DNA of 64,000 nt from Escherichia coli (GCF_050920415.1 NZ_CP169309.1), one strand, 5' to 3'. Shown: positions 38,380 to 38,460, numbered from the stretch's first letter. Made by a program: numbers and translations. Notes: generated by a model from the sequence alone, not told the origin.

Positions 38380-38460
38380 TGGACCGCCATCGAGGACTCG
38401 AACCCCGCACCAACAACCCTGTTATCGTGTCGTCTGCTCTTCCTGATGAGCTAATGGCGG
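38380..38460 (-). tRNA. tRNA-like sequence with degenerate anticodon arm; possibly a pseudo-tRNA
   Basis: Good acceptor, D-arm and T-arm (GGTTCGAGTCC) but no clean 5 bp anticodon stem. Confidence 0.35.

Follow-up and report, generated by a model that had tools for sequence, protein, structure and literature searches.

A probable non-decoding pseudo-tRNA between ileZ and argO of a phiP27-like prophage in Escherichia coli, and a conserved candidate RNA gene upstream of yahM

The 81-nt tRNA-like element at positions 38380-38460 on the minus strand of the window (the whole stretch of 64,000 nucleotides of Escherichia coli DNA that was analysed), situated between ileZ and argO of a phiP27-like prophage, is probably a non-decoding pseudo-tRNA under relaxed constraint, as judged from its sequence and those of its relatives. 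In the functional sense it is most likely a tRNA pseudogene, i.e., derived from a tRNA and deprived of decoding. Its odd central arm is of the same lineage as that of a gene upstream of yahM and separate from argN, a relationship that is new as far as we searched.

The 301-nt tRNA cluster is 100% identical to that of NZ_CP169399.1 (strain MFDS1022581), the window being E. coli chromosome. It belongs to the late region of a lambdoid prophage. Behind the Q antiterminator and a DNA methyltransferase gene follow, in this order, ileZ, the element, argO, a terminator-like hairpin just after argO, TerB-family and DUF3927 genes, and the holin. Neither the cluster itself nor the stretch from the methyltransferase gene to ileZ contains a promoter-like site. 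The element begins 8 nt after ileZ and ends 13 nt before argO, with C1 at 38460 and the last A of CCA at 38380; RefSeq places the label 'tRNA-OTHER' on exactly this interval in the identical genome NZ_CP169399.1 (positions 6111-6191 of locus L001 correspond to 38460-38380 of the window). The features of the cluster, all on the minus strand, are as follows.

38469-38543, minus strand: ileZ, CAU anticodon, annotated as tRNA-Ile, the upstream neighbour (ARAGORN; Rfam, 59.4 bits)
38380-38460, minus strand: the whole tRNA-like element including the encoded CCA, a probable pseudo-tRNA in the argN slot (sequence, RefSeq, Rfam)
38454-38460, minus strand: 5' strand of the acceptor stem, CCGCCAU (positions 1-7), pairing perfectly with 38384-38390 and equal to that in argN of PA33
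38436-38451, minus strand: D arm, stem GCUC/GAGC, loop AUCAGGAA, with G18 and G19 present (sequence, folds, Rfam model)
38408-38435, minus strand: aberrant central segment AGACGACACGAUAACAGGGUUGUUGGUG, in the place of position 26, anticodon arm and variable loop
38411-38427, minus strand: predicted hairpin CGAUAAC-AGG-GUUGUUG at the site of the anticodon arm, 7 bp with two G-U pairs and a 3-nt loop (minimum-free-energy and centroid folds)
38391-38407, minus strand: T arm, stem CGGGG/CCUCG with one G-U pair, loop UUCGAGU (sequence, folds, Rfam model)
38380-38390, minus strand: 3' strand of the acceptor stem, AUGGCGG, with discriminator U and encoded CCA (sequence, folds, Rfam model)
38290-38366, minus strand: argO, tRNA-Arg UCU, the downstream neighbour (ARAGORN; Rfam, 71.7 bits)
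38250-38276, minus strand: intrinsic-terminator-like hairpin GGCUCGC-UUUU-GCGGGCC (38259-38276) with a U run behind it, immediately past argO

The element has the following minus-strand sequence, from 5' to 3': CCGCCAU UA GCUC AUCAGGAA GAGC AGACGACACGAUAACAGGGUUGUUGGUG CGGGG UUCGAGU CCUCG AUGGCGG U CCA. The tRNA-like body that the original prediction had recognised in this interval is borne out in all its parts. The acceptor stem (CCGCCAT/ATGGCGG, with C1-G72), the discriminator U73 and the encoded CCA are those expected of a decoding tRNA, and the D and T arms are intact together with A9 and the nucleotides of the elbow (U8, A14, G18 G19 and UUCGA of the T loop). Moreover, the body is the same sequence as the bodies of bona fide prophage genes for tRNA-Arg(UCG) and tRNA-Lys(UUU), an identity that puts the element far beyond chance.

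Concerning the central segment, 28 nt are found between the D and T arms, as compared to the usual 23 nt of a class I tRNA (position 26, a 17-nt anticodon arm and a 5-nt variable loop), and neither the sequence itself nor the Rfam tRNA model nor ARAGORN yields a 5-bp stem with a 7-nt loop carrying U33 and a purine at position 37. Searched with the element alone, the Rfam tRNA model matches 38383-38460 with 33.3 bits (E = 5.6e-6; gathering score 29), about half of the scores of argO (71.7 bits) and ileZ (59.4 bits). It pairs GACGA with UUGUU by means of two G-U pairs and leaves a loop of 13 nt, which agrees with the earlier observation that no canonical 5-bp anticodon stem can be folded, that the best pairing needs two G-U pairs and that the resulting loop is implausible. 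This match is absent from searches with the 64-kb window and with 451 nt, an effect of the speed filter, and appears when the 91-nt stretch 38376-38466 is searched alone, such that the early Rfam negatives are not to be taken as absence of a tRNA signal.

ARAGORN, at its default settings, calls ileZ and argO and leaves the element uncalled; its relaxed mode reports 'tRNA-?(Val|Cys)(aaca)', of undetermined type, and with introns allowed it reports 'tRNA-Cys(aca)' after removal of a 4-nt 'intron' ACGA, the loop then being UAACAGG with A33. No defined anticodon was obtained from ARAGORN, Rfam or RefSeq, and no normal-scoring tRNA from the covariance model, in line with the original prediction, which had proposed such programs as a check. 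The minimum-free-energy fold is a cloverleaf in which the hairpin of 7 bp with a 3-nt loop replaces the anticodon arm; the folding z-score of -1.97 is by itself too weak to speak for or against structure. Matches or complements to the odd arm with up to three mismatches were searched throughout the window and consist of the element itself only, the arm thus being unique there. A match to YrlA, a bacterial Y RNA (RF02553), was rejected, as it reaches 20.1 bits against a gathering score of 69 and joins the T arm of the element to the D arm of argO.

With these results a role in decoding, made possible by an enlarged anticodon loop or by a mini-intron, is hardly credible for the element. Its Rfam score does lie just over the gathering threshold, and the ARAGORN call with introns allowed supplies a formal identity; however, the loop has 11-13 nt (3 nt if folded by minimum free energy), a 7-nt loop is obtained only formally, as UAACAGG, and would combine A33 with an A34 anticodon, and relatives vary within the supposed anticodon region. 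A mini-intron or expanded-loop tRNA was consequently set aside as purely formal, given A33 in its loop. To our knowledge, bacteria use an A34 anticodon only in tRNA-Arg(ACG), and we know of no machinery in E. coli for 4-nt tRNA introns.

For the origin of the odd arm, viral contigs were scanned with the shared acceptor ends as the pattern and any sequence allowed between them, and the results were tabulated together with loci already collected. One and the same tRNA body (C1-G72, U73, same acceptor, D and T arms) carries different arms, namely Arg-UCG (74 loci), Lys-UUU (16 loci) and the odd arm (35 loci); a few other arms on this body are Gln(UUG)-like or of types with a 6-nt loop. None of the tabulated odd-arm loci is called by ARAGORN. 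In nearly all related clusters some element fills the slot between ileZ and argO, and in 933W-like phages this slot holds argN, a tRNA-Arg(UCG).

The original prediction had described the element as argN-like and had suggested an alignment to argN of Stx phages. This holds for the slot and for the body, which is shared, but not for the central arm: an alignment of its 28 nt with the argN arm is equalled in score by 800 of 2000 shuffles, i.e., there is no similarity, and the argN arm CCAGC-CUUCGAA-GCUGG with its anticodon UCG is absent from the element. Against the arm of the yahM-upstream gene, on the other hand, the central segment scores 22 identities, a score reached by none of 2000 shuffles, and the first 32 nt, i.e., the whole 5' half, are identical between the two (32/32). 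The element also exhibits the other marks of the odd lineage: an insertion AGACGAC after the D stem, an arm of the form AAC.AGG.UUGUUG and a D loop of 8 nt, as in the yahM-upstream gene, whereas the D loop has 9 nt in the Arg and Lys members. The own promoter and leader and the invariance across species that mark the yahM-upstream gene were not found for the element, prophage copies being polymorphic and eroding.

The window form looks like the K-12 form with a tandem insertion of 4-5 nt (ACGAC|ACGAU) and small deletions, if the direction of change is read correctly, while its flanks and T arm resemble those of argN-type clusters. A mosaic copy (locus L030) combines a Lys-type 5' end with the odd arm, giving a C-A mismatch. 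Recombination within the body is the simplest explanation for interchangeable arms on one body, and the sequences suggest, as we infer, that anticodon arms have been swapped by homologous recombination within it; the long identical segments common to the element and its functional paralogs would allow such recombination between cluster variants. It is, by comparison, very improbable that point mutations and small indels turned the Arg(UCG) arm of a resident argN into the odd arm. Such an origin would fit the identical slot and an acceptor stem and T arm as in argN of PA33 and 933W-like phages, but the shuffling results favour the K-12-type arm over the argN arm, the 8-nt D loop and the AGACGAC insertion are common to the K-12 type and missing from the Arg and Lys members, and the mosaic points to exchange of arms by recombination.

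Further members of the body family also have unusual loops (loci L082, L087, L114 and L116, among others). In L087, L114 and L116 the gene is of a type 74 nt long with a loop of 6 nt, for which ARAGORN gives 'tRNA-???(cg)', and the Yersinia phages YeP1 and YeP3 (locus L012, 1503-1577, in YeP3) carry a copy labelled 'tRNA-OTHER / tRNA-Pseudo-TTG' with A33. Aberrant loops in these members indicate that non-decoding variants recur in phage tRNA clusters.

The chromosomal relative is an unannotated 81-nt tRNA-like gene situated between yahK/yahL and yahN and overlapping the beginning of yahM, an uncharacterised reading frame (345335-345415 in the MG1655 record NZ_CP184745.1; 3002-3082 in locus L005). 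A scan of genome contigs with a 19-mer diagnostic of the odd lineage gave matches within Escherichia only, namely in E. coli, E. albertii, Escherichia sp. E1V33 and an E. coli-like MAG, and all four are of the K-12 type and identical at 81 of 81 positions. An extra match of the 19-mer in an unrelated MAG contig has no tRNA-like sequence around it and was taken as chance. By comparison, E. albertii and Escherichia sp. E1V33 deviate from E. coli K-12 at 20-22 of the 133 positions that make up promoter and leader, and the DNA just downstream differs across species, homology with E. coli returning further on towards yahN. The promoter, a near-consensus sigma-70 sequence TTGACA-16-CATAAT situated 88 nt upstream (2886-2913 in locus L005), is conserved. 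Among E. coli records, the gene is identical in 4821 of 5170, as against 2963 of 5169 for the leader, and its sole common variant among the sampled one-mismatch variants is the allele of O157:H7, in which a G-U pair of the T stem becomes G-C.

By this pattern the yahM-upstream gene is under strong purifying selection, and the odd-arm architecture is accordingly compatible with a function. The Rfam tRNA model does not match the gene, and ARAGORN reports it as tRNA-Ser(gga) with a displaced anticodon. We regard it as a candidate conserved non-coding RNA, new as far as searched: neither the literature on yahM in connection with tRNAs or small RNAs nor the supplementary data of a study that sequenced small RNAs describe it. 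The start AUG of the yahM reading frame (3072-3317 in locus L005) lies inside the 3' strand of its acceptor stem, and the frame has a stop at codon 12 in O157:H7 (CAG to TAG; locus L229, 371 onward) and in the GTDB representative of E. coli (locus L138), such that the annotated N-terminus of yahM, and perhaps the gene itself, is doubtful. A leaderless reading frame running from the yahM-upstream promoter through the tRNA-like gene was rejected, as the translated alignment has a stop at codon 4 in E. albertii.

The prophage copies exhibit a different picture. A further scan required only the exact odd core and left the acceptor and T arm free to vary; pooled with loci already collected, it gave 113 copies, of which 17 have an intact T loop and 96 a destroyed one, distributed as follows.

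T loop intact, window-type: 8 copies
T loop intact, phiP27-type, with a G-G mismatch in the T stem: 8 copies
T loop intact, with a C7-A66 mismatch and an extra base in the D loop: 1 copy
T loop replaced by GGCGGGU or by G-runs of variable length: 96 copies

The G-runs extend over about 4 to 13 G (loci L006-L011 and L140-L228; e.g., L011, 1494-1603), a variation in length that reflects slippage or assembly error; some of the differences could be assembly errors. Some of the 96 copies have, in addition, substitutions in the acceptor stem, a change of U8 to G, or a truncation. The copies with an intact T loop represent three haplotypes, a diversity too low for selection on them to be measured. 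Intermediate states of the T loop (UUCGGGU, GUCGAGU and GUCGGGU) are also seen in some Arg-UCG copies. With regard to complete E. coli genomes, the best match of the element has at least 95% identity in 68 records and 90-95% in 1580 records, and the sampled matches of 90-95% are the degenerate form and unannotated. The window copy is the best-preserved form, erosion being visible in most prophages, which supports the earlier view of a decaying, non-decoding pseudo-tRNA as far as the relatives in other prophages are concerned.

Rates of change within the cluster were compared as variable columns per nucleotide among 33 haplotypes, with the 25-nt core excluded, as it was fixed by the search.

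ileZ: 0.13
argO: 0.13
5' half of the element: 0.19
3' half of the element: 0.63 (inflated by homopolymer gap columns)
spacers: 0.46-0.86

Substitutions in the hairpin of relatives (G to C, U to G) break pairs and are not compensated, i.e., the hairpin is not conserved. Taken together, the variation resembles that of a gene under relaxed constraint between two constrained genes, and the element unites tRNA ancestry, loss of the anticodon loop and faster change than in ileZ and argO, as is characteristic of a pseudogene.

Two related readings would give the element a function. According to the first, which we consider unlikely, it is a functional non-decoding tRNA-like RNA, a working phage copy of the yahM-upstream gene, in which the body, as a module, would provide for structure or processing and the hairpin would give a specific handle. 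Central arm and whole 5' half are indeed homologous to a gene that is invariant at 81 of 81 positions across species, has a conserved promoter, is identical in 4821 of 5170 E. coli records and varies in O157:H7 by turning a G-U pair of the T stem into G-C; the window copy has an intact body and a stable hairpin of 7 bp, and a functional pseudo-tRNA has a precedent (PMC3399842). However, T loop, acceptor stem and hairpin are eroded in 96 of the 113 prophage copies, two of the three haplotypes with an intact T loop have stem mismatches, the hairpins of prophage and chromosomal type differ in sequence, loop size and register, and the prophage copy is without own promoter or leader. According to the second and rather improbable reading it represents, on a phage, a so far undescribed family of tRNA-like RNAs that do not decode; it would arise from the late or tRNA transcript, undergo the maturation of a tRNA and act via body or hairpin. 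Possible roles would be to compete for enzymes or toxins that bind tRNA, to serve these as a decoy, or to form a module of a regulatory RNA, as has been proposed for the tRNA-Other of B. cereus. The original prediction had likewise offered a tRNA-derived regulatory element as an alternative, and this proposal found no direct support in the window copy, for which neither an own promoter nor a complementary target within the window nor conservation of the hairpin in relatives was found.

It is also quite improbable that the element acts in cis as a processing spacer, a 'punctuation' at which RNase P and RNase E/Z would release ileZ, argO and the downstream late mRNA from the Q-antiterminated transcript. 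The coaxial stack of acceptor and T arm and the CCA, which RNase P needs, are intact, the element is closely spaced 8 nt after ileZ and 13 nt before argO, and the slot is occupied in nearly all related clusters, all of which would suit such a role. Yet ileZ and argO are themselves substrates of RNase P, and both are intact in many prophages in which the element has a destroyed T loop, acceptor mutations or a truncation, from which it follows that a tRNA-like fold is not needed there.

Returning to the interpretation as a pseudo-tRNA under relaxed constraint, ileZ, the element and argO would be co-transcribed. Because the body is intact, folding and trimming like a tRNA are probable: the RNA would probably take the L shape of a tRNA and still be excised by RNase P and the 3' trimming enzymes. 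With its anticodon arm scrambled it would read no codon, and the product should neither pair with codons nor have a role in translation. Its persistence may be due to its position within about 100 nt between two useful tRNA genes. Genes of the host prophage annotated as frameshifted and a private deletion in ileZ speak for a relic, whereas the intact state of every feature of the tRNA body in the window copy, the strong purifying selection on the closest paralog, and the 5' half of the element, which varies little more than the flanking tRNAs (0.19 as compared to 0.13), speak against one.

Concerning the host prophage, several genes are annotated as frameshifted (methyltransferase and lysis protein), such that the prophage may be defective. 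In the ileZ of the window 1 nt is missing where the T stem meets the acceptor stem (CCAGC-AGGGCC in place of CCAGCAAGGGCC), and the D stem has T for C; both changes are private to this copy, being absent from about 30 related haplotypes compared, and reflect genuine damage or else an assembly error in a homopolymer. Of the isolated phages, phiP27, an Stx2e phage, is the nearest (97.7% over the cluster); in its GenBank records ileZ and argO are the only annotated genes of the cluster, the element being left unannotated, and stxA2e/B2e follow argO. At the place where phiP27 has stxA2e/stxB2e directly after argO (locus L002, 3364-4599), the window contains the TerB-family and DUF3927 genes (37524-38116, minus strand). 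Strong matches to small-RNA families in the prophage comprise STnc100 between DUF3927 and holin (37260-37458, minus strand; 148.7 bits), C4 antisense RNA (47174-47261, minus strand; 83.6 bits) and isrK (47286-47362, minus strand; 67 bits). Three tandem tRNA-Leu(CAG) genes (59618-59940, plus strand) and nearby matches to the REP-derived naRNA4 (59396-59478 and 3938-4114, both minus strand) belong to ordinary chromosomal context. A paper on satellites that target prophage late genes contains nothing on integrase-driven damage to the ileZ-element-argO cluster, and the open-access literature yielded no paper that treats ileZ, argN and argO together, nor one that treats argN with Stx and prophage.

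For the annotation of such clusters it follows that this one supplies two usable tRNAs, ileZ and argO, and that 'tRNA-OTHER' should be left out of the count of decoding tRNAs and not be taken for argN. As a kind, pseudo-tRNAs and 'tRNA-OTHER' calls are already known, the locus has already been flagged by automated annotation, and it is ordinary for the window. The comparison illustrates how prophage tRNA clusters might evolve, with one body and exchangeable arms (Arg-UCG, Lys-UUU, Gln-like and odd). The yahM-upstream gene, as a promoter-bearing and species-invariant member of the Escherichia core genome, merits a study of its own; if its RNA is expressed, a new conserved non-coding RNA would be added to those of the best-studied bacterium, and the annotation of yahM would have to be revised.

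Among known systems, the tRNA-Other of Bacillus cereus is a pseudo-tRNA without a role in translation, which has been proposed to be a tRNA-like module in a larger regulatory RNA, and for which experimental phenotypes and mapped transcripts are available (PMC3399842). It resembles the element in the annotation label 'Other', in its association with mobile DNA and in being non-decoding. It belongs, however, to another phylum, and its phenotypes and transcripts contrast with an element known from sequence alone; the likeness does not derive from a sequence comparison.

Closer to the element are the members of YeP1/YeP3 and of the 74-nt type, which possess the same body and the same 3' strand GUUGU of the arm, likewise with aberrant loops (A33 or 6 nt). 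They differ in the loops themselves and in their neighbours (Met, Thr, Gly and Arg-CCG), and most of them are called by ARAGORN as odd tRNAs. The argN of Stx phages of the 933W/Sakai type, arranged as ileZ-argN-argO upstream of stx, occupies the same slot downstream of Q; its acceptor stem (C1-G72, U73, CCA) and T arm are the same as in the element and its D arm nearly so, whereas the element has no Arg anticodon arm, an unrelated central segment of 28 nt, a D loop shorter by 1 nt and no ARAGORN call.

The greatest similarity exists with the yahM-upstream gene, which shares with the element the length of 81 nt, the 5' half (32/32), the AGACGAC insertion, the AAC.AGG.UUGUUG arm and the acceptor stem, while the T arms differ in one base of the loop; in the folds of both, a hairpin of 7 bp stands where the anticodon arm would be. 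Despite this similarity there are differences between the two: an own conserved promoter, an 88-nt leader, identity across species and a loop of 6 nt are found in the yahM-upstream gene only, whereas the element exhibits the tandem insertion of 4-5 nt, a loop of 3 nt, no promoter of its own, and relatives that are decaying.
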